Of a stretch of 64,000 bases of DNA, positions 27,396-53,103 are shown piece by piece; within the stretch, counting starts at the first letter, position 1, and every line of letters starts with the position of its first letter. This DNA comes from a bacterium (GTDB lineage Bacteria; 4484-113; JAFGCY01). A model generated the notes under the pieces. It saw nothing but the letters and a program-made list of their open reading frames with translations, made no database searches and had not been told where the DNA came from. The DNA is taken from positions 5,092 to 69,091 of the forward strand of contig JAGRNR010000009.1 of NCBI GenBank assembly GCA_020440645.1, written 5' to 3'. Both the position numbers and the translations under genes were made by a program.

Positions 27396-28061
27396 GTGCC
27401 CCTATATTACTTGACAGTGCTGGCGCTCGCCGGGTTCCTGAGTGGATCCCTGCCCTTCGGCTGGCTTGTGGCGCGGCTCGGGGGCATGGACATCCGCAAG
27501 CATGGCAGCGGCAACATCGGCATGACCAATGTCTGGCGCGTGATGGGCTGGAAAGCGGGCCTGACTGTGCTGCTGCTGGACGTGGCCAAGGGCCTGCTGC
27601 CCGTGCTGCTGGCCGGGCGCCTGATGGACACCGTCAACCCACCGGGGCTGACGATCAGTGGCCGCGCCTGGCTGCTGCTGATCACCGGGCTGGCCGCGAT
27701 CCTCGGGCATACATTCACGCCCTGGCTGAAGTTCAGGGGCGGCAAGGGTGTCGCCACCAGCCTCGGTGTGCTGATCGCGCTCTACCAGTTATGGGTGTTG
27801 GCGCCGCTTGGCGTATTCCTGCTGGCGCTGGCAATCACGCGCATGGTGAGTGTCGGCAGCATCCTCGCCGCACTGAGTGTGGGCATCCTTGCGGTGGCCG
27901 TGCCGGCACTCAGGCCCTACATGGCGTTTGGCATCCCAGTGGCTCTGCTCGTGATCTGGACGCACCGCAGCAACATCCGCCGCATCCTCGACGGCACGGA
28001 AAGCCGCGTCGGCAGCGGGAAGAAAAAGCCCGCAGCGGAGTCAACCCAGGCGGATCAGTAG
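27396..28061 (+). CDS. plsY: Glycerol-3-phosphate acyltransferase PlsY (acyl-phosphate dependent)
   Basis: MPLYYLTVLALAGFLSGSLPFGWLVARLGG…DIRKHGSGNIGMTNVWRV…LLLDVAKG…ILGHTFTPWLKFRGGKGVAT. These are the conserved PlsY motifs. 221 aa. Confidence 0.85.
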   Translation: MPLYYLTVLALAGFLSGSLPFGWLVARLGGMDIRKHGSGNIGMTNVWRVMGWKAGLTVLLLDVAKGLLPVLLAGRLMDTVNPPGLTISGRAWLLLITGLAAILGHTFTPWLKFRGGKGVATSLGVLIALYQLWVLAPLGVFLLALAITRMVSVGSILAALSVGILAVAVPALRPYMAFGIPVALLVIWTHRSNIRRILDGTESRVGSGKKKPAAESTQADQ

Positions 28062-29755
28062 ATCCCGGCGGAGTGGATCGAATCCAGCATTGCCGAATAG
28101 CCCGCTGACATATGCATCAGCCAGTTCGGATAGATGCCGAGGAAGATGATCGCAGCGCCGAGTGGCAACAGCACGATGGCCTCACGCAGCGGCACACGGC
28201 CCTTCGCCGACTCCGGTGCATCCCCCGGCAGCGTGCGCTGCAGCAGGCTGATCATGTACACCGCGCTCGTCAGCACGCCGATCACCGCCAGGGCCGAGAG
28301 GATCTGCAAAAGCAGGCTGCCGTCGATGCTGCCAACCAGCACCGTCTGCCAGCCCGGCCCGTTCTCGAACGCGCCCATTAAGCTGTACAGCTCGCCCCAG
28401 AAGCCGGCCAGCGCCGGGAAGCCCATGCCGGCGAAGGCCGCCAGCGAAAGCATGCCCGCCAGGAGCGGGGCCGCGCTGCCCAGCCCAGCGATCTCATGCA
28501 CGTTGCGTGTGCCGTAGCGCCGCTCGATGCTGTCCGCCAGCAGGAACAGCGTGGTGATGATCACGCCGTGGCCCACCATGTGGTAGATCGCGCCGGTCGT
28601 TGCCAGCGGGTTCATTGCGCTGCAGCCGAGGATGATGAAGCCCATGTGGCTGATCGAGCTGTAGGCGATCATGCGCTTGATGTCGGTCTGTACCAGCGTG
28701 ACAGCCGCGCCCCAGACGATGCCGATCACCGCCAGCGTGGCAACCACCGGGCCGATCGCGTAACCCTGGTCCGGCAGCGCCCAGTACAGCACGCGCAGGA
28801 ATGCGTATGTCCCGCTCTTGAGCATCACCGCCGCGAGGATCACCGACATTTCCGCCGGGGCCTGGGTATGGGCCGGCGGCAGCCAGGTGTGCAGCGGGAA
28901 CAGCGGTGCCTTGACGGCGAAGGCCACGAGGAAGCCGAGGAAGATCCACATCCTCAGCCAGGGCACGACATCCGTATAGCCCTCGTTCAGCAGGAAGGTT
29001 GCCAGGTTCGGGATCTGGAAGCTGTAAACGCCGGCGCTGATCACCTTGCAGATGATGAGCGACATCAGCATGAACACCGAGCCGGCCATGGTGTACACGA
29101 AGAAGCGGATCGCGGCGCGCGCCGCCTTCTCGCGGTCCTTGCCCCAGCCGCCGATCAGCACGTACATCGGGATCAGCATCCATTCCCAGAACAGGTAGAG
29201 CAGCACGAAGTCCAGCGCCACGAAGGAGCCGATCAGGCCGACCTGCATGAACAGGGTCAGCGCGAGGAATTCCTTCACCCGCTCCGTGCGGTACCAGCCC
29301 CAGATGATGATCAGTGGCAACAGCGCACAGGTCATCAGCACCAGTGGCAATGACAGGCCGTCGATGCCGACGTCGTAGTGCACGCTGAAGCTGCGGCTCT
29401 CGCCGATCTTGATCGCCATCCATTCGATGTCCTGGCGGTACTGGAAGCCCGGGAACTCCGCCTGGAAGGGCGTGTACTGCCCGAGCGGCTTCAGGTCCTG
29501 CACGTTCTGCGAAGTGTCCGTGTATCCGGCGTAGGGCCGCCAGCTGGTTGCACTTTCGGGCAGCCCGGTCAGCAGCAGCACCGCAAACAGCAGGCTGAGC
29601 AGCGAGAACACCAGGGCCACGATCTTGATTGGCAGGATCTTCTTCTTCGGGATCAGGCAGACCAGCAGGCAGCCGACCAGCGGGGCCAGCATCATCTGGG
29701 TGATGGGGTTGCTGATCCACGAGATGAAGCCTATGAAACTCTGCGTCTGGTCCAA
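28055..29755 (-). CDS. Complex I antiporter-like subunit, NuoM/ND4-like (Mrp-type)
   Basis: 566 aa, about 14 TM. NuoM/NuoN/MrpD-type signatures (…PLHTWLPPAHTQAPAEMSVILAAVMLKSGTYAFLRV…; …WGAAVTLVQTDIKRMIAYSSISHMGFI…). Starts 1 nt after the nuoL-like stop. Convergent 7-nt overlap with plsY. Confidence 0.8.
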   Translation of the reverse strand: MDQTQSFIGFISWISNPITQMMLAPLVGCLLVCLIPKKKILPIKIVALVFSLLSLLFAVLLLTGLPESATSWRPYAGYTDTSQNVQDLKPLGQYTPFQAEFPGFQYRQDIEWMAIKIGESRSFSVHYDVGIDGLSLPLVLMTCALLPLIIIWGWYRTERVKEFLALTLFMQVGLIGSFVALDFVLLYLFWEWMLIPMYVLIGGWGKDREKAARAAIRFFVYTMAGSVFMLMSLIICKVISAGVYSFQIPNLATFLLNEGYTDVVPWLRMWIFLGFLVAFAVKAPLFPLHTWLPPAHTQAPAEMSVILAAVMLKSGTYAFLRVLYWALPDQGYAIGPVVATLAVIGIVWGAAVTLVQTDIKRMIAYSSISHMGFIILGCSAMNPLATTGAIYHMVGHGVIITTLFLLADSIERRYGTRNVHEIAGLGSAAPLLAGMLSLAAFAGMGFPALAGFWGELYSLMGAFENGPGWQTVLVGSIDGSLLLQILSALAVIGVLTSAVYMISLLQRTLPGDAPESAKGRVPLREAIVLLPLGAAIIFLGIYPNWLMHMSAGYSAMLDSIHSAGIY

Positions 29756-31918
29756 CTACTCGTACCTCCCGAGGAAGCTCTGAATGATGCGCCGCAGTGT
29801 CTCGTTGAGCGGGAAGGAGACGACAATGCACATCAGCACGGCACCCAACAGCAGCACGAACATGTAGTTCTGGATCTGCCCGTTCTGCCAGTAGCGGCCG
29901 TGCAGCCGCTTGATGATCCACCAGATCTCGCAGCACCACCAGCGGATGCCGTCGACGAAGTGCAGGTCAAGCCAGGCACTGGCATTGGCCAGCCCACGGC
30001 CGCCGCGCCCGATGCGCGTTGACAGCCAGTCGATCAGGCGGATGTCTGAAATGCCTGCAAGAATTGCGAGGAACTCGCCGAAGCCGCCCACCAGTCCCGT
30101 GAAGAAGGGCTTCAAGTACAGCCCCTCGCGGAAGAATCCGGTCACGCCTGTCAAGAGCGGGGTCGGGCTGGCCAGCCCGCGCTCCGAGGCGGAGACGAAT
30201 CCAAGCACTGCGCCGGCCAGCACCAGCACGACCGAGAGGCCGGCGGCCAGTGGTTCGAAGTTGCCTGCCCATTGCAGGTCGTGCAGCCGGCCCTCGAAAT
30301 AGGCGCGGTAGGATGGCCAGAAGGCGGCGATGCCGATGCTGCCGATGAGCGCCAGCAGGATGGAAATCACAGTCGGTCCGGCCCAGCCATTGCCTGCGGA
30401 CGCTTGCTCCGCCAGGCCATTGGCAGCCTCCTTGCCGGGGGAAGGCATCAGCCCGCTCAGCAGGCGCGCACAGTAGGCTGCGGTAAAGGGAATCGATGCG
30501 ATCAGCAGCAGCGCTCCGGCCTGCCAGTAACCCGGCATGGCGGGCATTGTGCTTGCCAGTGCGTTGCCACCGTAGTCCTGTCCGGCGCGGGACAGCAGCG
30601 CGGAGAGGATCTGGTCCTTGCCGAAGTAGCCCGCCAGCCCGATCACACCGGCCAGGCTCAGGCCGGCCGGCAGCAGGGCCAGCCAGAACAGCTGTCCGCT
30701 GGCGGGGGACTGCCTAAGGTCGTCAAAACTCGGTTCGTCGTCATTATGTGTTGCCTGGGCCTCATGCCAGCGCGCCACCACAATGCCGACCGCAAGGAAC
30801 AGCGCGGCCTTGAACCAGGCATGTGCCAGCAGCTGGAATCGCGCGGCCTCCATCGCCAGCGCCCCGCTGCCCATCACGCACAGCCCAAGCTGGCTGACCG
30901 TGCTCCAGGCCAGCAGCTTCTTCGGCTGCTGCTGGCAACAGGCCACGATCGAGCCCATGAGCATCGTCAGGCCGCCGAGCATCACCGCCCAGGCCAGCGG
31001 GGCCACGTACCAGCCGGGGTTGCCACTGTCCGCCTGCACCGGCACGACAGTTCGCCCGAACAGCAGGTCACTGGCCAACAGCGGCCCGGCCGCCACCAGA
31101 GTTGCACTGTGCAGCAGGGCACTGACCGGGGCCGGGGCCACCATCGCATCCGGCAGCCAGAATGACAGCGGCAGGAGTGCTGCCTTGCCGAGCACGGCCA
31201 GCAGGACTAATAGTCCGGCCACGATCATCCAGTTCACGGCGGACAGCTGGTCCGGTACATGCTGTGCCACCCAGCCGATGCTGACCTGGCTGAGCTGCAC
31301 CATGTGCACACCGAAGCGGCCGAAGCCGAACATGAAGATGAAGATCGCGAACAGCAGCCCGAAGTCCGTGGCGCGCGTCGTCCAGAAGGCCTGGCGCGCT
31401 GCCCGGTTGGCCTCCGGCGTGCCCTTGTGGCGGATCAGCAGGTAGCCGGCGAGGCCCATCATTTCCCAGGCGATGTACAGCAGGATCAAAGTGTCACTGA
31501 CGAGGAACAGCAGCATTGAGCCGCAGAAGAATGTCAGCAGCGCATGGAATTGCGCGGCCTTCGGGTCAGCGCGCCGCTCGCGGATTGCATACAGCAACAC
31601 CGCCACGCCGATCAGGCAGGTTGTCAGGATGAACAGCACCTGCGTGTAGTCCGCGCGCAGGGCCAGCGGGATCGGCGGGAAGGCGCGGATCTCCGTGGTG
31701 TAGCCGCTGATCCAGTTGACCATCCATACCGCGCGGCCGGTCTCGGCATCCAGTCCCGCATTGACGGCGAGCGCCATCCCGGCACTGGCCACAAGCGACA
31801 GCACGCCGAGCAGGGCCGTGACGACGGCCGGCACACGGCGCATGAGCAGGCCCGCCCCCGCCGCCAGCAGCGGCAGAAGCGCGATCAGCGGCAGCAGTCC
31901 CTGCATCTCAGGCACCAC
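29756..31918 (-). CDS. Complex I antiporter-like subunit, NuoL/ND5-like
   Basis: 720 aa. N-terminal NuoL signatures (…LFLVSDTLILLYIAWEMMGLAGYLLIRHKGTPEANRAARQAFWTTRATDFGLLFAIF…), a long polytopic body and a C-terminal region consistent with the NuoL lateral helix plus a final TM. Confidence 0.8.
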   Translation of the reverse strand: MVPEMQGLLPLIALLPLLAAGAGLLMRRVPAVVTALLGVLSLVASAGMALAVNAGLDAETGRAVWMVNWISGYTTEIRAFPPIPLALRADYTQVLFILTTCLIGVAVLLYAIRERRADPKAAQFHALLTFFCGSMLLFLVSDTLILLYIAWEMMGLAGYLLIRHKGTPEANRAARQAFWTTRATDFGLLFAIFIFMFGFGRFGVHMVQLSQVSIGWVAQHVPDQLSAVNWMIVAGLLVLLAVLGKAALLPLSFWLPDAMVAPAPVSALLHSATLVAAGPLLASDLLFGRTVVPVQADSGNPGWYVAPLAWAVMLGGLTMLMGSIVACCQQQPKKLLAWSTVSQLGLCVMGSGALAMEAARFQLLAHAWFKAALFLAVGIVVARWHEAQATHNDDEPSFDDLRQSPASGQLFWLALLPAGLSLAGVIGLAGYFGKDQILSALLSRAGQDYGGNALASTMPAMPGYWQAGALLLIASIPFTAAYCARLLSGLMPSPGKEAANGLAEQASAGNGWAGPTVISILLALIGSIGIAAFWPSYRAYFEGRLHDLQWAGNFEPLAAGLSVVLVLAGAVLGFVSASERGLASPTPLLTGVTGFFREGLYLKPFFTGLVGGFGEFLAILAGISDIRLIDWLSTRIGRGGRGLANASAWLDLHFVDGIRWWCCEIWWIIKRLHGRYWQNGQIQNYMFVLLLGAVLMCIVVSFPLNETLRRIIQSFLGRYE

Positions 31919-31953: not shown

Positions 31954-32439
31954 TCAATCCTTCATCAGGTTGGCATCATCAAGCATGATGCTCTTCTTCA
32001 TGCGGTAGAAGGCGATGATGATCGCCAGCCCGACCGCAGCCTCAGCCGCAGCAACGATGATCACGAATATCGAGAACACCTGGCCCATGTTCGTCATCAC
32101 GGATTCCTCCGCGGTGAACGAGGCCAGGGTGGATTTCGGTCCGTAGTAGAAGTTGAACGCGCTCATGTTGATGTTGACGGCGTTGAGCATCAGCTCCAGC
32201 GCCAGCAGCATCCCGATCGCATTGCGCCGCGCGATCACGCCGTACAGCCCGAGGCAGAAGATGAACGCGCTGAGCACGAAGTACTGGTGGTAGTCCACGT
32301 TGGTGAACCACACCATCGGCGTGTCGCCACTTGAGGCGAACCACTGGCGCGAGGCGAACTCGATCGCCTGGATGATCGGCGCCAGGCCCTCGCTCGCCAG
32401 CGAGCCACCCTCGGACTGTTGCAGCAGCAGCAGTAACAT
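31954..32439 (-). CDS. NuoK/ND4L-like subunit
   Basis: ORF 31954..32652. Homology to NuoK begins at the internal Met at 32316 (MVWFTNVDYHQYFVLSAFIFCLGLYGVIARRN… ~ E. coli [27 protein letters not shown]; …GQVFSIFVIIVAAAEAAVGLAII… ~ [23 protein letters not shown]). An in-frame Met at 32439 whose ATG overlaps the nuoJ-like TGA (ATGA) would add a 41-aa non-hydrophobic N-extension. The start is therefore either 32439 or 32316. Confidence 0.7.
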   Translation of the reverse strand: MLLLLLQQSEGGSLASEGLAPIIQAIEFASRQWFASSGDTPMVWFTNVDYHQYFVLSAFIFCLGLYGVIARRNAIGMLLALELMLNAVNINMSAFNFYYGPKSTLASFTAEESVMTNMGQVFSIFVIIVAAAEAAVGLAIIIAFYRMKKSIMLDDANLMKD

Positions 32440-33485
32440 CAGTCCTTCCTCACCAGGATGATCGCGCCGAGCATCGCCATGAGCAGGAGCACGCTGGCCA
32501 CTTCGAAGGGAAGTGTGTACGTTGCCATCAGCGACCAGCCGATGGCCTGGGTATTGCTTGTCAGTACTGCCGCACTGGGCGGGAACTCGGTGTTCTGCGG
32601 GAACTGCATGAACATCCCGACGAGCGCCATGAAGCCGAACAGCATCGTGCACAAAAGCGCGGCCCAGGGGCTCAGGTCAGTGTTCTGCCTGAGCTCGGTG
32701 CCGATGATGTTCTGGCTGACCATGATGCCGAACAGGAACAGCACCATGATGCCGCCGATGTAGATGATCACCTGCACCATCGCGAGGAACTCAGCGTTGA
32801 GCAGGATGAAGTAGCCGGCCACGCCGAACAGCGAAAGGATCAGCATCAGCGCGGAGTGGAACACGTTGCGCATCGTTACGCAACCGATGCCGCCGCCGAC
32901 CACGCCCGCCGTGAACAGCCAGAAGAAGAAGTTCAGCAGCCTGAGCGCGGGCACGCTGAGTGCCAGCATGCCCCAGAAGAAGGCGATGAAGCCAACGACT
33001 GTGAGGATTGCCAGCAGGCGCCGGTGGTCATGGAAGCGGTGCAGCGAAAGCTGCACGCAGGCGATCGTGCCGCCGACCAGCCCGAGGATCAGCATATTTG
33101 AAAGGTTGACAACCAGCGGCTGGAACAGCAGGGAGCTGATCACGAACACCGCCAGGCCAGCGCTGGCTGCCACCCGCAGCAGTCCGGCCTCCGCCGGCAG
33201 GCGGTTGAACAGCATCAGGTTCAGCAGGTAGAAGCCGGCGAGCATGCTGGCGCCCACCAGGATGCGTGCGTCCAGCTGCAAGGCCGCGGACCAGTCCAGT
33301 TTTCCACCCAGCGCTGCCAGCGGGGCGGCCAGCAGCGCCACAAGCACCGCGATCCCGGCCGTTGCCAGCAGCTGGCGGAAGATGCCGTCCAGCCGGTTGA
33401 CGAGCAGTCCGGCGGCCGCCAGCAACGCGGCCAGCAGGGCCACATTGCGCAGCAGCATAAGGGCGGCGGGCAGGCTGGTTTCCAT
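32439..33485 (-). CDS. NuoJ/ND6-like subunit with a ~165 aa N-terminal polytopic extension
   Basis: The C-terminal ~180 aa align with NuoJ (TMRNVFHSALMLILSLFGVAGYFILLNAEFLAMVQVIIYIGGIMVLFLF… ~ E. coli THTNPVHALLYLIISLLAISGVFFSLGAYFAGALEIIVYAGAIMVLFVF; C-terminal …YTLPFEVASVLLLMAMLGAIILV). Canonical NuoJ is about 170-200 aa; this protein is 348 aa with 4-5 extra N-terminal TM helices. Confidence 0.7.
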   Translation of the reverse strand: METSLPAALMLLRNVALLAALLAAAGLLVNRLDGIFRQLLATAGIAVLVALLAAPLAALGGKLDWSAALQLDARILVGASMLAGFYLLNLMLFNRLPAEAGLLRVAASAGLAVFVISSLLFQPLVVNLSNMLILGLVGGTIACVQLSLHRFHDHRRLLAILTVVGFIAFFWGMLALSVPALRLLNFFFWLFTAGVVGGGIGCVTMRNVFHSALMLILSLFGVAGYFILLNAEFLAMVQVIIYIGGIMVLFLFGIMVSQNIIGTELRQNTDLSPWAALLCTMLFGFMALVGMFMQFPQNTEFPPSAAVLTSNTQAIGWSLMATYTLPFEVASVLLLMAMLGAIILVRKD

Positions 33486-34480
33486 CAGGAACTCACCTCC
33501 CCGCGTGGCCGCCTGAGCGGCAGCACCAGCGCCTCGCGATTGGCAACCGGCATCGCCCAGCGCTCCTCGAACACGACGAGCGGGGTGCCGTCCGCGCGCT
33601 TCAGTTCGCCCAGCGCGGGATCATGGTCATAGCGTCCGAGGTCAACGAACAGCACCGTCGGCTGCCCGGGGGCCTGCGCGATTGCACCGCTGCCATCGGC
33701 GGCGATGATGCGCAGCGCTTCCTCCTCAGTCAGTGAGTCGACATTCAAGAGCGGCACGCCGCGGTAGGCCGCCGGCAGCTTCGGCCGGCTGCGCGGATAG
33801 TCCTCGGTGAAGGGCTCGCTCGAAGCCATCCGGGCGGTCTCGCGGAAGCCGGTCAGCACGGAGGTGCCGTAGCGGTGCACGCGGTTGCTGAAGAACCAGA
33901 ATTGGCTGAAGCCGGTTGCAAGGTAGCTCAGGTTGAGCACGAACACCAGGAACCAGAACAGCGCCCAGAGCATGAAGTAGCCGAGCTGGAACTTGAACAC
34001 GGGGAGGCTGCCGGTCTCGCGCCAGATGGCGAAGCCCTCGCCGCTGAGCAGAAGCGTCAGGTTCGGCGTGTCGGCAATGCCCTTCACGCTCATCTTCGGG
34101 TGGATGCGGTCCAGCGGGTCGAATTCCACGATGAAGAAGAACAGGATGATCACGAACAGCAGCAGACGCCAGAGCGTGAAGTCGCGCACCATCCAGCGGC
34201 TGTACTTCACAAGCGCGCCGGATGCCCACCAGAAGAAGCCGAGAATCGCCGGCAGGGCCAGCAGCAGGCCGCTAGCAGTGAACCACATCAGAGAGTACTG
34301 CTCGGAGGGCTGCTTGGAGGCATAGTCGTCAAACAGCGCGCCGTATTTCGTGTAGACGAACACCAACGTGAACCAGGACACGGCGATGAAGCCATAGAAC
34401 TTGAACCAGTCCATCGCGGTGTAGCCGAACCAGCGCTTCGGCAGCGGATGGTGGATTGTCAGGTCATGCCCGTCAGGCAT
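33485..34480 (-). CDS. Hypothetical polytopic membrane protein encoded inside the nuo-like operon (occupies the NuoI position)
   Basis: ORF 33485..34561. Start placed at MPDGHD… (ATG 34478-34480), which overlaps the TGA of the upstream gene (ATGCCTGA). Several TM helices (WFKFYGFIAVSWFTLVFVY; MWFTASGLLLALPAILGFFWWA; LWRLLLFVIILFFFIVEF; LGYFMLWALFWFLVFVLNLSYLA) plus a ~130 aa soluble C-terminal domain. No Cys-rich ferredoxin motifs (not NuoI). Its TGA overlaps the nuoJ-like ATG (33483-33487). Confidence 0.5.
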   Translation of the reverse strand: MPDGHDLTIHHPLPKRWFGYTAMDWFKFYGFIAVSWFTLVFVYTKYGALFDDYASKQPSEQYSLMWFTASGLLLALPAILGFFWWASGALVKYSRWMVRDFTLWRLLLFVIILFFFIVEFDPLDRIHPKMSVKGIADTPNLTLLLSGEGFAIWRETGSLPVFKFQLGYFMLWALFWFLVFVLNLSYLATGFSQFWFFSNRVHRYGTSVLTGFRETARMASSEPFTEDYPRSRPKLPAAYRGVPLLNVDSLTEEEALRIIAADGSGAIAQAPGQPTVLFVDLGRYDHDPALGELKRADGTPLVVFEERWAMPVANREALVLPLRRPRGEVSS

Positions 34481-34943
34481 GCTGCACCTCCTCCACCGTT
34501 TCCGGCTCGTTGGCAGCACTGCCGCCCGCTCCTGCTGCGGCGATGTTGCGCAGCTGGGCATGGTGCCCGGGCGCCGTCACCACGAACCAGTAGAGGAAGC
34601 CGGGCAGCAACAGCAGCACCGGCCGCAGTGTGAACTGCAGTTCGTACTGCAGCCACAGCGAATACAGGCAGCCGCAGGCCGCGAAGCTCCACAGCAGGGA
34701 AGCGATGCCGGGCCGCCGCCTGAACCAGGGGTTGATCCAGGCCGCATTGCGCGCCGGCGTCAGCGGCAGCACCGCCAGCAGCAGGCCGATTGCCAGCAGG
34801 GCCAGCGGGCCGAACCACTGCGTTGTCAGCACGGGTGCCACTCCAAGCACGATGCGCAGGTACAGGCCCCAGGCCCCGGCGGCCACGAGCAGCAGCTCTC
34901 CGAGGAGATGCAGCAGGTTCTGGCTGGTTGACAGCATCCTCAT
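34473..34943 (-). CDS. Hypothetical small membrane protein (4 TM) encoded inside the nuo-like operon
   Basis: ORF 34473..35042. Start placed at the internal Met MRMLSTSQNLLHLLGELLLVAAGAWGLYL… whose ATG (34941-34943) overlaps the TGA of the nuoH-like gene (34940-34942). About 156 aa. No family recognised. Confidence 0.5.
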   Translation of the reverse strand: MRMLSTSQNLLHLLGELLLVAAGAWGLYLRIVLGVAPVLTTQWFGPLALLAIGLLLAVLPLTPARNAAWINPWFRRRPGIASLLWSFAACGCLYSLWLQYELQFTLRPVLLLLPGFLYWFVVTAPGHHAQLRNIAAAGAGGSAANEPETVEEVQHA

Positions 34944-36715
34944 CCGGTCCAGCTCACCTCCCGGCGGGGCTGCGGATGTCGGCGCTGCACGAACAGGATG
35001 CGCCAGGCCATCAGGAGGATGAACAGGCCGAAGAACAGGCACAGCACGTTGTAGCCCCAGAAGAAGGCCTTCTCGGGGACTGTCATCACCGCCAGTGCTT
35101 CAGCTGTTGTCAGCGTCTGGTACTGGGTGACGCGCTGCAGGGCGGTCACGTCGACATCGGAGACGGCCAGCTGGTTCGCGCTGAACCAGGGATGGCGGTT
35201 GACGACGCCGAGCGCGGTGGCCGCCATCACGACCACGCTGGCCGGCAGCAGGAACTTCCAGGAGAAGAACATGATCTGGTCCACGCGGATGCGCGGCATC
35301 GTGGAGCGCGCCCATATGAAGAAGAAGCACACGGCGTAGGTCTTCAGCAGGAACCAGAACAGGCTCGTCAGCCACAATCCGTCGGGGCCGAGGAACATCG
35401 GGCCCTTCCAGCCGCCGAAGAAGCAGACGGTCATGATCGCGCTGACGATGAACACGTTGGAGTACTCGGCGACATAGAACAGCGCGAAGCGCATCCCGCT
35501 GTACTCCACCAGGTAGCCGCCCAAGAGCTCGTTCTGCGCTTCCGGCAGGTCAAAGGGCGGGCGGTTGGTCTCGGCAAGGCTGACAACGAGGTAGATGATG
35601 AAGGCCGGGAACAGCGGCAGGATGCCCCAGGTCATCGTCTGGCGCTGCACGATCTCCGTCAGGTTCAGCGAACCGGCAAAGATGGCAACGCACAGCAGGC
35701 TCATCAGCATCGGGATTTCGTAGGTCAGCAGCATCGCGGCCTCGCGCATCGCGCCGACCAGTGCATATTTGTTGTTGGAGGCGTAGCCGGACATGATCAC
35801 GGCCACGAGGAACATCGCAAAGTCGGCGATGATCAGGAGCAGGCCGACATTCAGGTCCTGGATCATGTAGTAGATGATCTGCCCGTCGACAGCCGCCACG
35901 CCGAACGGGATCACCACCCAGCTCAGGAGCGCCGGCAGGTAGACGAGGATCGGCGCGATCAGGTACAGCAGCTTGTCAGCGCTGAGCGGAACGGTGTCTT
36001 CCTTGAAGAAGATCTTGATCGTGTCGTAGAAGCCCTGGCGCCAGTAGTAGCGCAGCATGTAGCTCATGTAGAGCACGAAGGCGACCACGGTGCACAGCAC
36101 GGTGAGCTGCGGCAAAAACGGGATGTGCGCCTTCGGGATGAAGCCCAGCAGGAGAGCGACGAGCATGCCACCGCAGGACGCGAGGGATGGCCAGGCCAGC
36201 AGTGACAGCAGCGTTGCCAGGAAGCGCCAGACGGAGGTCTGCGCGGCCTGCATCCGGCCGAGCGCTGGCAGGATCATCAAGCGGTTGATCAGCCCCATCA
36301 TGCCCACGGCGAAGAACAGGATGATCCAGCCGCCGAACTGTTGCCAGCCGGCGGTGCCGCCGGTCCAGTAGTTGATGCCGTACAGCAGCGCGGGCAGGCC
36401 GATCAGCACGCCGATCTGCAGGAAGATCCGCCGGAAGCGCTGCGGGGTGACCTCGCCGTACTCCTGCGGGCCGCGGCGGCCCTGCATGCGCGCCATCAGG
36501 CGGCGTTCCCAGACCTGCAGGCCGATGGTGATCATCAGCTCCAGGAGGAAGATCAGCAGGAGCGCCGTCACCAACATGATGCCGTTGGCAACCTCCGGGC
36601 TGAAGCGCAGGCCGGGCAGCGGCTCGGTGTTGAGCCAGGCGCGCATCGCCTCCCAGACGGTGCGGGCCTCGTCCATGTCGTAGCGCTGCTGCAGGATTGC
36701 CAGCATCGGGAGCAT
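34940..36715 (-). CDS. NuoH/ND1-like subunit with a ~150 aa polytopic insertion and a ~80 aa C-terminal extension
   Basis: ORF 34940..36793. Start placed at MLPMLAILQQ… whose ATG overlaps the nuoD-like TGA at 36715. NuoH motifs are present (…VWERRLMARMQGRRGP…; …DTIKIFFKEDTVP…; …ASNNKYALVGAMREAAMLLTYEI…; …RPPFDLPEAQNELLGGYLVEYSGMRFALFYVAEY…; …RIRVDQIMFFSWKFLLP…). About 150 residues with about 4 TM lie between the RRGP and IKIFFKED motifs, where E. coli NuoH has about 15 residues. Confidence 0.75.
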   Translation of the reverse strand: MLPMLAILQQRYDMDEARTVWEAMRAWLNTEPLPGLRFSPEVANGIMLVTALLLIFLLELMITIGLQVWERRLMARMQGRRGPQEYGEVTPQRFRRIFLQIGVLIGLPALLYGINYWTGGTAGWQQFGGWIILFFAVGMMGLINRLMILPALGRMQAAQTSVWRFLATLLSLLAWPSLASCGGMLVALLLGFIPKAHIPFLPQLTVLCTVVAFVLYMSYMLRYYWRQGFYDTIKIFFKEDTVPLSADKLLYLIAPILVYLPALLSWVVIPFGVAAVDGQIIYYMIQDLNVGLLLIIADFAMFLVAVIMSGYASNNKYALVGAMREAAMLLTYEIPMLMSLLCVAIFAGSLNLTEIVQRQTMTWGILPLFPAFIIYLVVSLAETNRPPFDLPEAQNELLGGYLVEYSGMRFALFYVAEYSNVFIVSAIMTVCFFGGWKGPMFLGPDGLWLTSLFWFLLKTYAVCFFFIWARSTMPRIRVDQIMFFSWKFLLPASVVVMAATALGVVNRHPWFSANQLAVSDVDVTALQRVTQYQTLTTAEALAVMTVPEKAFFWGYNVLCLFFGLFILLMAWRILFVQRRHPQPRREVSWTG

Positions 36716-37869
36716 CACTTGTCGACCTCCCCGATCATGATGTCGAGGCTGCCGTAGATCACGAACAGGTCCGCCAGCAGGTAGCCGCGGCACAGCTCGT
36801 CCAGCAGGAACAGGTGGTACAGGCTCGGCGCACGCAGGTGCATGCGGCTCGGGCGGTTGCTGCCGTCGCTGACGAGTGTCAGGCCGAGCTCGCCGCGCGG
36901 GCTCTCGACCGCCGTGTAGACCTCGCCGCGTGAGACCTGCATCGCAGCGAAGTCTGGGCTGACATCCGCCGCCCGCAGCTCGCCGTTGTCAATGTAAGCC
37001 AGGCAGTGCTCAATGATGCGCAGGCTCTCGCGCATCTCGACGAAGCGCACGCGGTAGCGGTCCAGCACATCGCCATACTCGCCGGTCGGCACATGCAGCT
37101 CCAGCTCGCCGTACATCGCATAGGGCTGGTCGCGGCGCAGGTCATGCGCGATCCCGCTGCCGCGCAGCACGGGCCCGGTGGCACCGTGCTCGAAGGCGAA
37201 CTCGGGCTCGAGCGTGCCGATCAGCTCGCTGCGGTTGACCCAGATCGCGTTGTCAGAGAAGAAGTCCTCGTATTCATCCAGCCGGCCCTGGAACCACAGG
37301 CAGAATGCCCGCACATGGCCGCTGAAGTCCTCCGGCGGGGCAGTGCGCACGCCGCCGGGCACGATCCAGCCGTGGTGGTGGCGGTGCCCGCTGAGCATCT
37401 CCAGCAGGTCGAGCAGCATCTCGCGCTCGCGCAGCGAGATGAAGATCGGGGTGTAGGCGCCGGCCTCCAGGCCGAGGTTGCCAAACCAGAACAGGTGGTT
37501 GCCGATCCGGCTCAGCTCCAGCACAAGGGTGCGCAGCCACTGCGCACGGGCCGGAACCGTGATCCCCTCGATGCGCTCGATGGCGTCCGCCACCAGCCAG
37601 TCCGCATTGCTGCCGGCCAGCCACTCGCAGCGGGACAACAGCCCCGCCGCCTGGGCGTAGTTGCGCTGGGTCACCAGCTGCTCCACGCCGCGGTGCATGA
37701 AGCCGACCTCCGGCGTGATGCGCTCGATCAGCTCGCCGTCCGCCTGTACCCGCAGTTCCAGCGGGCTCGGCAGGCTCGGATGCTGCGGGCCGACGGAGTA
37801 GACCAGCTTCTCGGTCAGCAGCGGGTCGCGGCGGATCTCGACACGGCGATCAGAGCTGCGCGTCATCAA
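36715..37869 (-). CDS. NuoD (49 kDa)-like subunit lacking quinone-site His/Tyr and any NiFe-binding cysteines
   Basis: GPQHPSLPSPLELRV… (canonical GPQHP.AHGV), …GFMHRGVEQL…, …RIGNHLFWFGN…, and C-terminal …YGSLDIMIGEVDK (complex-I-type ending, no CxxC). 384 aa. Overlaps the nuoC stop by ~20 nt. Confidence 0.85.
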   Translation of the reverse strand: MMTRSSDRRVEIRRDPLLTEKLVYSVGPQHPSLPSPLELRVQADGELIERITPEVGFMHRGVEQLVTQRNYAQAAGLLSRCEWLAGSNADWLVADAIERIEGITVPARAQWLRTLVLELSRIGNHLFWFGNLGLEAGAYTPIFISLREREMLLDLLEMLSGHRHHHGWIVPGGVRTAPPEDFSGHVRAFCLWFQGRLDEYEDFFSDNAIWVNRSELIGTLEPEFAFEHGATGPVLRGSGIAHDLRRDQPYAMYGELELHVPTGEYGDVLDRYRVRFVEMRESLRIIEHCLAYIDNGELRAADVSPDFAAMQVSRGEVYTAVESPRGELGLTLVSDGSNRPSRMHLRAPSLYHLFLLDELCRGYLLADLFVIYGSLDIMIGEVDK

Positions 37870-38434
37870 GCACCTCCCGCATCGCCGCGTCCGCGCGCTG
37901 TTTCAGCACGTTTTCAGCGTAGTTCTCATGTGAGGCAGCCCTGAACTCCCGCCTGAGCGGGAAGCCCTGCAGCTGCGGGTCGAGGATCAGGCCAATGAGG
38001 TTAGGGTTGCCGGCGAAGGGGATGCCGAAGAACTCGAAGATCTCGCGCTCCATCAGCTCCGTGGCCCGCCAGATCAGGCTCAGGCTGGGGTGCACGCTCT
38101 GCCCGGCATAGGCCGGCGCGGCCTCGCTGTCCTCCCCGCCCGGATCCGTTGCCGGGGGATTGCCCTCCAGCAGGGTGAATTTCCATTTCAGTGTGAGGCT
38201 GACGTCATGCCGCCTGCCGTGCCTGAGCGTCAGGTAGAGGTGGAAGTCCGGCCCGCCGAGGTGGTTGGCGGTCATGTTCAGCGCACGGATGAAGCCGATG
38301 TTCTTCAGCTGGCGGCAGACCAGCGGCAGCTGGCCGCTGTCCGTCAGGATCGCCCAGCCGCGGGCGGGGTCCAGCAGCAGCACATCACCGCAGTCCTCAC
38401 GGATCTGACCGGCAAGCTCATCAGGGAGCACCAA
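37850..38434 (-). CDS. NuoC (30 kDa)-like subunit
   Basis: …ELMEREIFEFFGIPFAGNPNLIGLILDPQLQGFPLRREF… matches the NuoC signature (E.E..E.FGI.F.GHP.L.R.L…G.PLRKDF). 194 aa. First gene after an AT-rich intergenic region. Confidence 0.8.
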   Translation of the reverse strand: MVLPDELAGQIREDCGDVLLLDPARGWAILTDSGQLPLVCRQLKNIGFIRALNMTANHLGGPDFHLYLTLRHGRRHDVSLTLKWKFTLLEGNPPATDPGGEDSEAAPAYAGQSVHPSLSLIWRATELMEREIFEFFGIPFAGNPNLIGLILDPQLQGFPLRREFRAASHENYAENVLKQRADAAMREVLDDAQL

Positions 38435-38656
38435 GTCCTCCCCATCCTGGCTGGATTACGGCAATCGGCATACAGGTATAAACGATCAAAAGCCCCACAG
38501 CGTTACCTTATACATACAAAATGCAAAGGCTTTTGTAATTCTAGCCGATGGGGCAGCGCTGATCACCGCCTGCAGGCAATTGGTTGAAGGGCGTGTGGGT
38601 CTGCCAGCCCAATTGTTAACAGCGGGAAAATCAAAGTAAAGTCCCGATTCAATTAG
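38435..38656. promoter_or_regulatory. AT-rich divergent intergenic region (promoters for the nuoC-led operon and the sensor-kinase unit)
   Basis: Low-GC stretch (…gtataaacgatcaaaagcc…ttatacatacaaaatgcaaaggcttttgtaattctag…gggaaaatcaaagtaaagtcccgattcaattagttgattcattatcttgcgag…) between divergent gene starts. Confidence 0.45.
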
Positions 38657-39025
38657 TTGATTCATTATCTTGCGAGCCTGGATAATTTCTATAATTCAAA
38701 TCGTCAGACCCAGTCTGTACCGGTTGAATTCAAGATTCCAGGTCAAGGCATGCCACAGCAGCATGAATTAATTACTGCAATCCTCGGACTTGGCGTGTTG
38801 TTGCTGATGATCGTGCAACGCCGCCAGCTGCGGCTCATCCCTGACTACCGCTGGCTGTTCCTCTCCTACTGCCTGATCCTGCTGGCCTGGCTGCTGACCA
38901 TTGCGGAAGATTACTGGCTGCCGGTCTACATGAACCTGCTGGAGCATATCTGTTACCTGGCCAGCGCAGCGCTGGTCGCCTGGTGGACACAGAAGTTCCT
39001 CAGAAGGGAAGCGCCACAGCAATGA
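38657..39025 (+). CDS. Small membrane protein (2-3 TM), translationally coupled to the downstream sensor kinase
   Basis: 122 aa. TM segments (LITAILGLGVLLLMIV; WLFLSYCLILLAWLLTIA; ICYLASAALVAWW). Its TGA (39023-39025) overlaps the ATG (39022-39024) of the next gene (caATGAgc). Confidence 0.5.
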   Translation: MIHYLASLDNFYNSNRQTQSVPVEFKIPGQGMPQQHELITAILGLGVLLLMIVQRRQLRLIPDYRWLFLSYCLILLAWLLTIAEDYWLPVYMNLLEHICYLASAALVAWWTQKFLRREAPQQ

Positions 39026-40836
39026 GCATGCTGCTGACGGTGTTTGACCTGCTGAGCCTGCTGGCCGTGCTGTCTGCACTGTGGCTGGCGGCAGCCAGGC
39101 GGATTGCCGGCCTGCGGCGTGACTACCTGTGGTGCCTGATCATCCTGCTGGTGGTGCTGGGTCTCAACTTCCTCAGCAACCTGCTGGACAACAGCGGGCT
39201 GAGCCCCTGGCTGGAGCGCTTCGAGGACTACCCCGGACTGCTGCAGCCGGTGTTCTGGGGCATCCTCCTGATGAGCCTGGTGCAGGACCGCGCCCTGCGC
39301 CGCACCGAGCTCTCTGAACAGCGGCTGCGCGGCCTGCTGGACGCGATGCGTGACGGGGTTGCCACTATTGACCCGGGTGGCGTGTTCCGCTTTGCCAACC
39401 CGGCGGCCGCGGAAATCCTCGGGGTTGCCCACGGCAGCCTTAGCGGCCGCAGTCTGGACGAGTTCTGGCTGGCTACCGAATCGCATACTTGCCGGATGCT
39501 GCCACATTCCCCGGGCCAGGATTACAGCGCCTACGAATGCGGCATCCGCCATGGCAGCGGCGACAGCCTCGTGCTGCTGCTGCAGGTCTCGCCGATCCCG
39601 GGCCAGCCCCGCCAGCGCCTGCTGTTCATGCATGATGTGACCCCGCTGCGCCGGGCCGAGCACAGCCTGCAGCAGGCCCAGGCCCAGCTCGGACAGGCCC
39701 AGCGGCTGGAGGCGATCGGCACGCTGGCCAGCGGCATCGCCCATGACTTCAACAACATCCTGTTCGCGATTTCCGGCAACAGCCAGATCGCGCTGGATAC
39801 TGAGGGACTGACCGTCGATGCGCGGGAGAGCCTGCGCGAGATCGACACCGCCAGCCGCCGCGCCTCCGACCTGGTGGCGCAGATCCTCAACTTCAGCCGC
39901 AGCGAGAAGAGCCGGACACGGGACCTGTTGCCACTTCCGGTTGTCAAGGAAGTGCTGCGCCTGCTGCGCTCCACCGTGCCGCCGCAGGTCAGCATCCAGC
40001 TCAGCCATGACGAATCGACGTGCCGGATCCATGCCGACCCGACCGACCTGCACCAGCTGCTGATGAACCTCTGCACCAATGCGATCCAGGAGATGGCGGT
40101 GGAGGGCGGGACGCTGCGGGTCCGGTTGGAGTGCAGCAATCCACCGCCGACACTGGCCGAGCGGGGAATGCTGCAGCCTAAACCACACCTGATGCTCAAG
40201 GTCAGTGACACGGGGGGCGGTATTCCACCGGATGCGCTGCCGCACATCTTCGAGCCCTTCTTCACGACCAAGCCAAGCGGTGAGGGCACCGGTCTAGGGC
40301 TGTTCGTTGTCAGCGGGATCGTCAAGCGCCTGCAGGGACAGATCGAGATTGACAGCGAACCGGGCCATGGCAGCAGCTTCACGGTCTGGCTGCCGCTGTC
40401 CAGCGGGGCCGCTGATGCCGACGATGCCGGGCCGGGGCAGGCCACCGGCCGCGGCCGGGGCCGGCTGCTGGTGGTTGACGACGAGCCGGCGGTCAACCGG
40501 GTGCTGGCGCTGATGCTCGGCCAGCTCGGCTACAAGGTGACAACCTATAGCGACAGCTACCGCGCGCTCAGTGAGTTCCAGACCAACCCGGAGCAGTACG
40601 ACCTGCTGCTGTGCGACATCTCGATGCCGGGCCTGCGCGGCGATGAACTGGTGAAGCGGATACGCTCCGTTCGCCCAGGCCTGCCGGTGGTGCTGTGCTC
40701 CGGCAATCCGGATGTTCTGCCTCCGGGCAGTGCAACTGAACTGGGTGTGCATGCAGTGCTTAAGAAACCGGTTGACAAGCCACAGCTGGCGGATTGCATC
40801 GCCGAGGCACTTGGCAGTAACCGTGCACAGGCCTGA
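39022..40836 (+). CDS. Hybrid sensor histidine kinase (TM sensor, PAS, HisKA, HATPase_c, C-terminal receiver)
   Basis: ORF 38983..40836. Start placed at MSMLLTVFDLL… (ATGA coupling). Two or three TM helices, PAS-like region (LLDAMRDGVATIDPGGVFRFANPAAAEILG…), H-box (LEAIGTLASGIAHDFNNIL), N/G boxes (LMNLCTNAIQEM…; DTGGGIP…FEPFFTTKPSGEGTGLGL) and a receiver (RLLVVDDEPAVNRVLALMLGQLGYKV…DLLLCDISMPGLRG). Confidence 0.85.
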   Translation: MSMLLTVFDLLSLLAVLSALWLAAARRIAGLRRDYLWCLIILLVVLGLNFLSNLLDNSGLSPWLERFEDYPGLLQPVFWGILLMSLVQDRALRRTELSEQRLRGLLDAMRDGVATIDPGGVFRFANPAAAEILGVAHGSLSGRSLDEFWLATESHTCRMLPHSPGQDYSAYECGIRHGSGDSLVLLLQVSPIPGQPRQRLLFMHDVTPLRRAEHSLQQAQAQLGQAQRLEAIGTLASGIAHDFNNILFAISGNSQIALDTEGLTVDARESLREIDTASRRASDLVAQILNFSRSEKSRTRDLLPLPVVKEVLRLLRSTVPPQVSIQLSHDESTCRIHADPTDLHQLLMNLCTNAIQEMAVEGGTLRVRLECSNPPPTLAERGMLQPKPHLMLKVSDTGGGIPPDALPHIFEPFFTTKPSGEGTGLGLFVVSGIVKRLQGQIEIDSEPGHGSSFTVWLPLSSGAADADDAGPGQATGRGRGRLLVVDDEPAVNRVLALMLGQLGYKVTTYSDSYRALSEFQTNPEQYDLLLCDISMPGLRGDELVKRIRSVRPGLPVVLCSGNPDVLPPGSATELGVHAVLKKPVDKPQLADCIAEALGSNRAQA

Positions 40837-40884
40837 CGGGCGGGCGCGTCAGTGCTTTGTGATATACATGGGGAGGAGGCAGGC

Positions 40885-41250
40885 ATGGCGAAGAAGAAGT
40901 TCGAGGATGTGGACCCGCAGGTGCTGGCGGCCTACATGAAGATGATCGGGGGCGTTGAAGGGGTCGAGGCCAAGGGGGCCGCCGCGCCGTACACCTCCCT
41001 GAATGGCAATATGTACTCCAGTATCTCGAAGTTCAACGAGATCGGCCTGCGGCTGGCGAAGGATGAGCGCGAGGCCTTCCTCGAGAAGTACGACACCCGG
41101 CTCTACCACTCCATCCCCGGATATGTGCAGCGGGAGTATGTCACCGTGCCGCCTGCACTGTTTGGCAACACACGCACTCTGCGCAGCTGGTTCCGGAAGT
41201 CCTACGACTACGTCTCATCACTGCCGGCGAAGCCCACGAAGAAGAAGTAG
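40885..41250 (+). CDS. Small soluble protein, possibly TfoX N-terminal-domain-like
   Basis: ORF 40852..41250. Likely start MAKKKFEDV…. Pattern …MIGGVEGV…LNGNMYSSIS…IGLRL…EREAFLEKY…REYVTVPPALFGNTRTLRSWFRKSYDYVSSL is loosely reminiscent of TfoX_N. Low confidence in the family. Confidence 0.4.
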   Translation: MAKKKFEDVDPQVLAAYMKMIGGVEGVEAKGAAAPYTSLNGNMYSSISKFNEIGLRLAKDEREAFLEKYDTRLYHSIPGYVQREYVTVPPALFGNTRTLRSWFRKSYDYVSSLPAKPTKKK

Positions 41251-41741
41251 CGGGAAGGATTTCGGCGCTCGCTTGTCGGCAGTAGCGGGCGCGCTTGGCG
41301 ACGCCATGGAGTGATTGCCGCGAAGCAATGAGTGATGGTGTGTTGGTCTGCAGACCAACAGGGCCCTGTGGCTCTCAAGAGCCACACTCCGCCGCGTGCG
41401 CGCAGCCACGCGGAAAGCCCCTCTGCAATGAGCAATGCGGAGCAAGCAATGAGCCCGACGACACTCATTGCCAGACTCTGCGGCTCTGCGTTCACCAATA
41501 TCGCTCCACCCCAGCCGCATTGCCAACCAAGTGCAGGCTAGCCTCAGCCCAGTCAAACTGGAGAATTGTCAACACAGAGCCACCGAGCGCACAGAGTTTT
41601 CTGATCAGCTCCAGTCCCCGCATTTCCCTGACTTCGCTGCATCCCCTCCCAATCGCGGCTGGGCCGCGCCGGTTCTTCCGGTAACCCTGACCCTTGTTCT
41701 TCAGGTTGACTGATTCACTGGGAAATCCGAGACGAGCCAGT
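41251..41741. other. ~490 bp non-coding spacer rich in palindromes/hairpins and a repeated CAATGAG heptamer
   Basis: Perfect 20-bp palindrome TGTTGGTCTGCAGACCAACA (~41338-41357). Adjacent 8+2+8 palindrome GTGGCTCT-CA-AGAGCCAC. CAATGAG occurs 3 times (…gcgaagcaatgagtgatgg…, …tctgcaatgagcaatgcgg…, …gcaagcaatgagcccgacgacactcattgcc…), the last forming a hairpin with CTCATTG. No ORF of significant length with coding character. Confidence 0.5.
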
Positions 41742-42539: not shown

Positions 42540-42558
42540 GGTTCATGGTAATGCGATC

Positions 42559-43011
42559 CTACCGCCACGCAAACCGCTCATCCAGCGCACCCGAGAGGAT
42601 GCGCTCCCGGAGCGCGATGATGCCGTCGATCAGCTGCTCGGGCCGCGGCGGGTCGCCCGGCACATAGATGTCCACTGGTACGATGCGGTCCACTCCCCCG
42701 TCCACCGCATAGCTGCCGTCGAAGGGCGCGCCGCTGATCGCCCCCGCGCCAAACGCCATCACGAAGGCCGGGTCGGCCATCGAGGCATGCAGCCGGCGGA
42801 TCACCGGGGCCATCTTGTTGTTGACGACGCCGGCCACGATCAAAAGGTCCACCTGGCGCGGGCTGGGGCGCATCACCTCAGAGCCGAAGCGCGCGATGTC
42901 ATAGCGCGGCGAGATCGCGCTGAACAGTTCCAGCGTGGCGTAGTCCAGTCCGAGCATCAGCGGCCACAGGGAATGGGCACTGGCCTCGCGGATGAGGTCC
43001 TTCAGACCCAT
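42559..43011 (-). CDS. NuoB (PSST/20 kDa)-like subunit in which all four cysteine ligands of Fe-S cluster N2 are replaced
   Basis: …HSLWPLMLGLDYATLELFSA… (canonical …WP..FGL[A/S]CC..EMM…); …VDLLIVAGVVNNKMAPVIRRL…; …VMAFGAGAISGAPFDGSY… (canonical MG.CA.[S/N]GG…); …IVPVDIYVPGDPPRPEQL… (canonical PGCPP). Overall NuoB fold signatures are intact (ARFG.E..R.SPRQ.D; KMAP; PVD.Y.PG.PPRPE). 150 aa. Overlaps nuoA by 10 nt. Confidence 0.8.
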   Translation of the reverse strand: MGLKDLIREASAHSLWPLMLGLDYATLELFSAISPRYDIARFGSEVMRPSPRQVDLLIVAGVVNNKMAPVIRRLHASMADPAFVMAFGAGAISGAPFDGSYAVDGGVDRIVPVDIYVPGDPPRPEQLIDGIIALRERILSGALDERFAWR

Positions 43012-43400
43012 TCCAGCGCTCCCTTGCGGTAGGCATAGGCCCAGCCGACGAGCAGGATGCCGAGGAACACGAACATCTCGCCCAGTGAGGCGGCCCCGAT
43101 CGGCGTGAAGGTGATGTCGTCATTGCCGAACACCAGCAGCCGGAAAGCGGTGGCCCAGGGGAAGATGAACATGATGTCCACGTCGAACATGAGGAACACG
43201 ATCGCGAGGATGTAGAAGCGGATGTTGAAGCGCACCAGCGCATCGCCGGTGGCCTGCGCGCCGGATTCATAGCTCAGGCGCTTGAGGAAGTTCGGCCGCC
43301 GCGGACGCCACAGGTTCAGGAAAGCGAATGCCAGCCCGATCAGCACCGCCCCGCCCAGCAGGAAGAGTGCCACCCAGTTGTACTGTCCAACGGTGTTCAT
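43002..43400 (-). CDS. NuoA/ND3-like subunit
   Basis: …LSYESGAQATGDALVRFNIRFYILAIVFLMFDVDIMFIFPWAT…YRKGALEWV matches NuoA (YECG…F.[IV]RFY…A..F..FDVE..F..PWA; C-terminal KGALEW). 132 aa, 3 TM. Confidence 0.8.
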   Translation of the reverse strand: MNTVGQYNWVALFLLGGAVLIGLAFAFLNLWRPRRPNFLKRLSYESGAQATGDALVRFNIRFYILAIVFLMFDVDIMFIFPWATAFRLLVFGNDDITFTPIGAASLGEMFVFLGILLVGWAYAYRKGALEWV

Positions 43401-45553: not shown

Positions 45554-45675
45554 CTTTATTCCTCACTGCGCCCGGATACTCTCCAGCAAGCTGGAGGGGC
45601 AGCACAGAATTCTAACTGAAAGAATCACCAAACTGAGCTTCGCGGCAAGCAGGTCCCAGCTACCCCTGGCACGGT

Positions 45676-47790: not shown

Positions 47791-47903
47791 CTTTATTCCT
47801 TGAACCTGCCTGGTTCCTTATGGCAGTGCAGGAGGCTGGGAAAATTCTACTCGATCAGTCTCAATCATTGACTTTCCCAGTAAAGCAATCCGCCAGCGAT
47901 CAT

Positions 47904-49997: not shown

Positions 49998-50091
49998 GCG
50001 CTTGTCCTCGCACTTTACCGGGTTCCGTCCGCACAGATTCTAACCCAGGACAAACCAGGACAAGCAGTTGCATCGCAGTCCGGCCTGCAGC

Positions 50092-52914: not shown

Positions 52915-53103
52915 GAGGAATTCCTCTGGTTTCAGCGTGGAATACGGGTAAACATGCTGATTTTACCGGATTTTATGGTGACACATGTGAAAGATTAATT
53001 GTGTACCGCCGGTCGGTTTCATCTCAATTTGAAGTACCCTTGAAATTGTGGAAGAATTGTAAGAGGGCAGGCAAGCATGCCTGTCCGGCTGGCTGGACAA
53101 GCA

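Follow-up and report, generated by a model that had tools for sequence, protein, structure and literature searches.

A putative membrane-anchored NuoI without cluster ligands and an additional four-helix membrane protein in an apparently cofactor-free derivative of complex I from candidate phylum UBP7

The window analysed here is a stretch of 64,000 nucleotides (nt) of bacterial DNA (assembly GCA_020440645.1, contig JAGRNR010000009.1, positions 5,092 to 69,091 of the forward strand), on whose minus strand lie genes of the complex I type: A, B, C, D, H, x1, x2, J, K, L and M. The two proteins encoded between nuoH and nuoJ, x1 and x2, both named 'hypothetical protein' in public records (x2 is MCB1186391.1), are the subject of the present analysis, together with the complex to which they would belong; x2 appears to be the nuoI of the operon, anchored in the membrane and deprived of its cluster ligands, and x1 a subunit gained beside it. 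No nuoE, nuoF or nuoG is present in the locus, and no nuoN follows nuoM. From nuoA to nuoM, with lengths in amino acids (aa), the genes are the following:

43002..43400, minus strand: nuoA-like (PF00507), D79 equivalent kept
42559..43011, minus strand: nuoB-like (PF01058), all four N2 ligands substituted
37850..38434, minus strand: nuoC-like (PF00329)
36715..37869, minus strand: nuoD-like (PF00346), quinone-ligating His and Tyr substituted
34940..36715, minus strand: nuoH-like, 591 aa (PF00146), with an insertion of ~140 aa and a C-terminal extension
34473..34943, minus strand: x1, putative orphan subunit with four transmembrane (TM) helices, 156 aa, no Pfam match
33485..34480, minus strand: x2, putative membrane-anchored, Cys-free NuoI orthologue, 331 aa, no Pfam match
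32439..33485, minus strand: nuoJ-like, 348 aa (PF00499 over residues 199-344)
31954..32439, minus strand: nuoK-like, 161 aa (PF00420), both TM glutamates kept
29756..31918, minus strand: nuoL-like antiporter subunit (PF00361 in the identical locus L002)
28055..29755, minus strand: nuoM-like antiporter subunit (PF00361)

Related loci are designated L001 to L026 and related x2-type proteins by labels of the form P00xx. A first-pass annotation of the window had placed the open reading frames (ORFs) of x1 and x2 between nuoH and nuoJ on the minus strand, and both are indeed present; it had also described all the junctions as ATGA or TGATG overlaps, which holds for D/H (TGATG, 1-nt overlap), H/x1 (ATGA, 4-nt overlap), x2/J and J/K (TGATG in both), but not for x1/x2, where the two frames share the 8-nt overlap ATGCCTGA. 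Shine-Dalgarno sites of the GGAGG type lie 5-10 nt upstream at all four junctions inspected for them up to nuoJ (D/H, H/x1, x1/x2, x2/J), and a weaker one, GAGGAAGG, at J/K. Even where x1 has diverged to ~30% identity, the 4-nt overlap of H with x1 and the 8-nt overlap of x1 with x2 are found again, and the gene order A-B-C-D-H-x1-x2-J-K-L-M is unchanged, overlaps included, in contigs with x2 at 46-49% identity; no locus examined has x2 anywhere but between nuoH and nuoJ. The 'obligatory co-translation' proposed for these genes is overstated on start/stop overlaps alone.

The absence of ferredoxin Cys motifs reported for x1 and x2 is borne out, both proteins being entirely free of cysteine; in the six frames of the window no in-frame CxxCxxCxxxCP is found, the pattern matching only in off-frames of other genes, and none occurs in frame in the 12 related loci scanned. 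The topology first suggested, four TM helices for x1 and about four TM helices plus a soluble C-terminal domain for x2, agrees with the AlphaFold2 (AF2) models. For x2 the model (predicted local distance difference test, pLDDT, 82.7) comprises four TM helices (helical stretches 22-46, 58-93, 95-120 and 166-219), the fourth of which runs on into a long amphipathic helix; the alpha/beta domain at the C-terminus has the order beta-alpha-beta-beta-alpha-beta. The third TM helix carries a conserved (E)xxDPLDxIH motif at its periplasmic end. Positive-inside counts place both termini of x2 in the cytoplasm, and therefore its ferredoxin-fold domain on the side of NuoB, NuoC and NuoD. The protein may be divided as follows:

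33911..34480, minus strand: x2 residues 1-190, four-TM N-terminal domain, predicted N-in (AF2 and positive-inside counts)
33755..33910, minus strand: x2 residues 191-242, amphipathic surface helix and N-terminal signature of NuoI (SVLTGFRETA...PFTEDYP.....LPAAYRG)
33488..33754, minus strand: x2 residues 243-331, degenerate (beta-alpha-beta)x2 ferredoxin-fold domain, predicted cytoplasmic, all eight [4Fe-4S] ligands gone

Conservation in related loci, on which the significance of the two ORFs had been made to depend, is indeed observed: 27 homologues of x1 and 43 full-length homologues of x2 (44-100% identity, all unnamed) were collected, x1 being absent from L011, L020, L021 and L022 (see below). 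When 1.84 billion cluster representatives were searched exhaustively with a hidden Markov model (HMM), only 27 relatives of x2 were returned, and its family is therefore very narrow; the genomes with x2 matches are metagenome-assembled genomes labelled UBP7 or 'Planctomycetales bacterium', and in the complete genome CP060262.1 (HK-STAS-UBP7_A-1) x2 is 97% identical. In closer pairs the ratio of non-synonymous to synonymous substitution rates (dN/dS) is 0.13-0.34 for x2, 0.18-0.49 for x1 and 0.05-0.20 for nuoD, values pointing to purifying selection on all three; to judge from their sequences, x1 and x2 are real genes.

The decisive sequence evidence for x2 as a NuoI is provided by relatives that still carry cluster motifs. 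Five distant matches of the exhaustive HMM search (P0080, P0084, P0085, P0086 and P0091) combine an x2-type N-terminal TM domain with a NuoI module in which both CxxCxxCxxxCP motifs are intact; P0085 (MCD6119046.1) bears the NCBI name 'NADH-quinone oxidoreductase subunit I', and P0080, matched by Pfam Fer4_7, is encoded where nuoI belongs in an operon of the order A-B-C-D-H-I-J-K-L-M. In a profile-profile comparison with hhalign, the x2 family matches this cluster-bearing group with a probability of 99.8% (E 2.9e-29) over 272 columns, which span the TM domain and the whole ferredoxin domain; in the same alignment a five-residue deletion takes out Cys1 and Cys2, and L, A, Y, D, L and D stand at the positions of Cys3 to Cys8. 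The marks of the TM-anchored NuoI family, WW..G...R.S.W and DPLD in a four-TM N-terminal domain joined to a NuoI module, are found in x2, which shares with the cluster-bearing proteins both domain architecture and operon position and differs from them in having lost the two motifs. TM-anchored NuoI proteins with intact clusters, found in this analysis, are rare and uncharacterised; tblastn with the cluster-bearing group matched ordinary NuoI genes (29-47% identity over the ferredoxin part), the TM part being matched as well in only 4 of the 80 loci returned.

The comparison with ordinary NuoI (also Nqo9, TYKY (NDUFS8) or NdhI; TIGR01971, Fer4_7) points the same way. Against a profile of seven genuine NuoI sequences (E. 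coli K-12 nuoI and six plasmid- or chromid-encoded copies), residues 207-254 of x2 align by hhalign with residues 12-59 of E. coli NuoI (probability 86%, P 4.7e-6, score 41.1), a region comprising the surface helix and the T..YP.....P.[FY]RG signature, the motif being visible also in the consensus of the x2 family; none of 200 column-permuted NuoI controls reaches this score (12.2 +/- 2.2, maximum 20.9). The NuoI models of NCBIfam are the leading families for 17 of 41 members of the x2 family, a signal that is sub-threshold (best E 5e-4) but specific, and when the PDB was searched with the family profile, NdhI and the 23-kDa subunit were matched at the same N-terminal motif, again below threshold (E 1.3-2.4). 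In common with NuoI, x2 has the gene position between nuoH and nuoJ, the N-terminal surface helix with the motif T-x-x-YP-x(5)-P-x-[FY]-RG, and a predicted cytoplasmic (beta-alpha-beta)x2 domain, the fold of which is predicted to be kept despite the loss of all eight cysteines. Unlike NuoI, it has each of the eight ligand positions of the two CxxCxxCxxxCP motifs substituted or deleted, and carries a 190-residue four-TM domain fused N-terminally. The first-pass annotation had taken NuoI to be missing and replaced by two unrelated proteins, both candidate novel accessory subunits; x1 does look like one, but the match at E 2.9e-29 and the cluster-bearing TM-NuoI relatives make x2 a full-length, diverged nuoI, in frame and selectively maintained, rather than the out-of-frame nuoI fragment against which that annotation had warned. 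Haem binding by x2 through two TM histidines was considered and rejected, His183 not being conserved in the window protein.

An intermediate state is represented by P0087 (L021 10001-11065), a half-degenerate TM-NuoI in which the first cluster motif is gone and the second is reduced to CxxCxxC. Locus L020 is the one cluster-bearing operon examined, and differs from the window in keeping the N2 ligands of NuoB and the His and Tyr of NuoD, in having neither x1 nor an insertion after the first TM helix of NuoH, and in a NuoJ of normal length.

The loss of cofactor ligands is not confined to x2. Residues were mapped onto the E. coli subunits (NuoD in the numbering of E. coli NuoCD), the residues being numbered as in E. 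coli and their letters having been verified on the E. coli sequence of L013. In the window NuoB, the ligands of cluster N2 are all replaced (C63Y, C64A, C129G, C158D), and in NuoD the quinone ligands are changed to H224P and Y273W, in agreement with the PDB alignment of NuoD, where PQHPAAHG becomes PQHPSLPS and DY becomes EW. The N2 positions read YAGD, YTSD or YSGD in all eight Cys-less loci with a scorable NuoB, and the quinone Tyr is Trp in all nine with a scorable NuoD; the cluster-bearing L020 has CCCC in NuoB and H/Y in NuoD, and the half-degenerate L021 has EDGS and W/I, a difference from the YAGD of the window clade that points to either a separate loss or an early-branching lineage. 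This co-variation over loci points to a coordinated loss of ligands across NuoB, NuoD and NuoI, and, the replacement residues being themselves conserved, a selected new state is favoured over decay. To judge from these alignments, every redox site examined has been erased, the N2 ligands, the quinone His/Tyr and the NuoI clusters being gone and NuoEFG missing from the locus.

The membrane part, on the contrary, retains nearly all the charged residues checked in the antiporter-like subunits and the E-channel: 29 of 33 residues checked in NuoA, NuoH, NuoJ, NuoK, NuoL and NuoM, which are essential for proton translocation, are identical to those of E. coli. Equivalents are kept in NuoL for E144, K229, H254, H338, K342, K399 and D400 (H334 is Q), in NuoM for E144, K234, K265, H322, H348 and E407, in NuoK for E36 and E72, in NuoJ for Y59, G61, V65 and E80, in NuoH for eight of ten (R148, E157, R209, D213, E216, E220, E241 and K303, with E218 replaced by Q and E36 unaligned), and in NuoA for D79, E81 being replaced by D.

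The other protein, x1, is modelled by AF2 as a four-helix TM bundle (pLDDT 82), predicted N-in/C-in by positive-inside counts, with invariant G15, E16 (in the first TM helix), W25, P63, W85, G91, P114 and W119. A single-sequence search found nine homologues, and the 27 mentioned above were reached after positional equivalents had joined the profile. The x1 HMM matches only operons in which x2 is Cys-less, L008 and L010 strongly and L012 weakly, and gives nothing in the six-frame translations of L020, L021 and L022. By hhalign x1 bears no relation to NuoH (with its insertion), NuoJ (with its extension), NuoK, NuoA, NuoL, NuoM or x2, and among the extra membrane ORFs of L010, L011 and L012 only the positional equivalent in L012 gives a weak match (38%, P 3e-4). 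That x1 might be a split-off piece of NuoH, NuoJ or the TM domain of x2 was rejected on these comparisons and on the subunit alignments. The best reading of x1 is that of a lineage-specific four-TM accessory subunit, probably gained between nuoH and nuoI.

Two neighbouring subunits have also grown in the membrane, as seen when NuoH and NuoJ of the window, E. coli, L020, L021 and L001 are aligned with MAFFT. Directly after its first TM helix and the RRGP motif, NuoH of the window carries an insertion of ~140 aa with predicted TM segments (aa 89-226, nt 36038-36451), which among the aligned operons is shared by the two with x1, L001 and the window, and by no other; PDB alignments of NuoH cover only query residues 47-88 and 227-502. 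In canonical complex I the first TM helix of NuoH and the next surface helix frame the quinone entry, and the insertion site is presumably beside this portal. A C-terminal extension of NuoH with one extra TM helix occurs in all the TM-NuoI operons aligned, and NuoJ has gained 55-185 residues at its N-terminus in L001 and the window, the TM extension of the window protein being ~185 aa long (nt 32931-33485). Further unannotated membrane ORFs are found between nuoD and nuoH (138 aa; L011 6985-7401 and L012 7080-7496) and between nuoH and x1 (170 aa; L010 8949-9461), so that the accessory membrane complement of the complex differs between lineages. In L011 the interval between nuoH and x2 (9214-10004) holds two ORFs resembling, by eye, a toxin-antitoxin pair of a nucleotidyltransferase and a HEPN/DUF86 protein.

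The operon of the window is interrupted by ~4.1 kb between nuoB and nuoC (38435-42558), a gap holding unrelated cargo in the window clade; nuoB abuts nuoC in L001, L009, L020 and L021. The gap contains a Cys-rich ORF of 265 aa without Pfam match on the nuo strand (41742-42539), a TfoX_N-like ORF on the plus strand (40852-41250), and a segment of 2.3 kb (38558-40874) with a hybrid PAS-HisKA-HATPase-receiver kinase (38983-40836, plus strand) and a small ORF of 2-3 TM helices (38657-39025); in the complete genome CP060262.1, which is 96-97% identical, this segment corresponds to 47 bp (L007 5876-5923), and it is a strain-level indel within the gap. Directly upstream of nuoA, four consecutive large secreted proteins with PKD/PPC domains are encoded on the minus strand (43454-52914), the domains having been assigned by Pfam in three of them and through an identical copy in L002 in the fourth; beyond these lies an S8 subtilase with Ig domains (53077-56775, plus strand). 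Neither the secreted proteins nor the subtilase have an obvious link to the complex.

Complexes combining a NuoD-like large subunit without NiFe or catalytic ligands with antiporter-like subunits are known as Ehr complexes (PMC6349859, PMC4758237). The window complex resembles them in its complex I/group-4-hydrogenase type of assembly, in a NuoD-like subunit devoid of metal ligands and in the retention of antiporter-like subunits, so that the label 'Ehr-like' given at first is apt, but only loosely. The affiliation, however, is not with the group-4 hydrogenases: the best PDB matches of the window NuoD are the 49-kDa subunits of complex I (E 3e-84), far ahead of Mbh (4e-44) and formate hydrogenlyase (5e-32), and descent from complex I, not from a classical hydrogenase-derived Ehr, is therefore indicated. 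In addition, the complex has NuoA, NuoC, NuoJ and a fossil NuoI, and has lost the N2 ligands too; neither a cluster-less NuoI nor x1 appears in the published descriptions of Ehr. Nor does it have the composition of an Mrp-type cation/H+ antiporter, with MrpE/F/G-type small subunits and no NuoH, NuoB or NuoD, NuoH, NuoB, NuoC and NuoD all being present and x1 and x2 having no Pfam match; the likeness to Mrp would be one of function, that of a redox-independent multi-subunit machine built of NuoL/M/K-like modules. In the searchable literature on Ehr, cluster-less or membrane-anchored NuoI and UBP7, neither such a NuoI nor x1 was found described, the name UBP7 leading in one search only to papers on a yeast ubiquitin protease. 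Cofactor-poor relatives of complex I and hydrogenases are already known as a concept through Ehr.

Taken as a whole, the locus is best read as encoding a complex I derivative of composition A, B, C, D, H, x1, I*, J, K, L and M (I* being x2) from candidate phylum UBP7 and its relatives, and a probability of about 0.78 is assigned to the reading in which x2 is a cluster-less NuoI and x1 a new subunit, both in a cofactor-free derivative of complex I. Three observations weigh against it. The window x2 falls below threshold on every curated NuoI or Fer4 model and has no NCBIfam match; Foldseek against the PDB, part of the remote-homology check that had been asked for and that the profile comparison answered in favour of NuoI, ranks the NuoI homologue of MBS first, but with a non-significant E of 1.3; and x1 is missing from L011, where two other ORFs stand at its site, and may therefore be dispensable, not universally required, or moved. 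The missing Pfam matches and Cys motifs of x1 and x2, and their shared public annotation, would also suit two new accessory subunits unrelated to NuoI, NuoI having simply been deleted; for x2 such an explanation is refuted by the cluster-bearing TM-NuoI relatives, the operon of P0080 and the full-length profile match, and as a whole it is most improbable.

It might also be supposed that a nuoI on its way to becoming a functionless pseudogene is all that x2 represents, and that the rest of the operon may be decaying with it, a supposition which would account for the disappearance of all cofactor ligands from NuoB, NuoD and NuoI and for the unrelated genes that break the operon between nuoB and nuoC. 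It is, however, barely credible in view of reading frames intact in more than 40 sequences at 44-100% identity, of the low dN/dS of x2 and nuoD, of conserved replacement residues (YAGD in NuoB, Trp in NuoD), of nearly all the checked pump residues being kept, and of the conserved Shine-Dalgarno sites and start/stop overlaps. A somewhat different possibility is that the complex is still a redox enzyme, receiving electrons through an unlinked partner or a cofactor not ligated by cysteine, for example one bound by conserved Asp/His of x2 or by the TM domains, with x1 and x2 forming a new quinone or substrate site. This is unlikely: the C-terminal domain of x2 has no conserved Cys or His, the window protein has not kept the histidine at 183 of the TM domain, the loss of N2 and of the NuoI clusters leaves no wire to the former quinone site, the His and Tyr that ligate quinone have disappeared as well, and the loci examined have no redox gene as a consistent neighbour.

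The C-terminal domain of x2 would still occupy the position of NuoI, capping NuoH and clamping NuoB and NuoD onto it in a purely structural role. At the heel of the complex, the TM domain of x2, x1 and the segments added to NuoH (the insertion) and NuoJ (the extension) may together make up a new module within the membrane. The fossil quinone module (NuoB, NuoC, NuoD and the cluster-less NuoI) could have been kept as a conformational or structural element, and the new module, around the former quinone portal, may couple the proton channels to a non-redox process, for instance cation/H+ antiport or solute transport. Because no electron path remains, redox-independent working is the most plausible, and a 'redox-dead' complex I, acting by analogy with Mrp as an ion translocator or transporter coupled to the proton motive force and independent of redox chemistry, is put forward tentatively; if this were true, the evolutionary path from Mrp to complex I would have been reversed.

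As to the meaning of these observations, the annotation of MCB1186391.1 and its relatives should be changed from 'hypothetical protein' to degenerate NuoI. L020, L021 and the window form a series of three stages (clusters intact, half degenerate, and cluster-less with new subunits) that documents the conversion of a respiratory enzyme into something else. How events at the quinone site are coupled to the distant proton pumps of complex I is still debated, and this lineage represents a natural separation-of-function variant, in which the pump residues, the NuoH/NuoD/NuoB scaffold and the NuoI fold have long been kept and all the redox ligands examined are gone. Such a variant could show the scaffold role of the peripheral arm apart from electron transfer, as well as other couplings of the antiporter modules, and would be of interest to complex I specialists as a pump naturally separated from redox chemistry.

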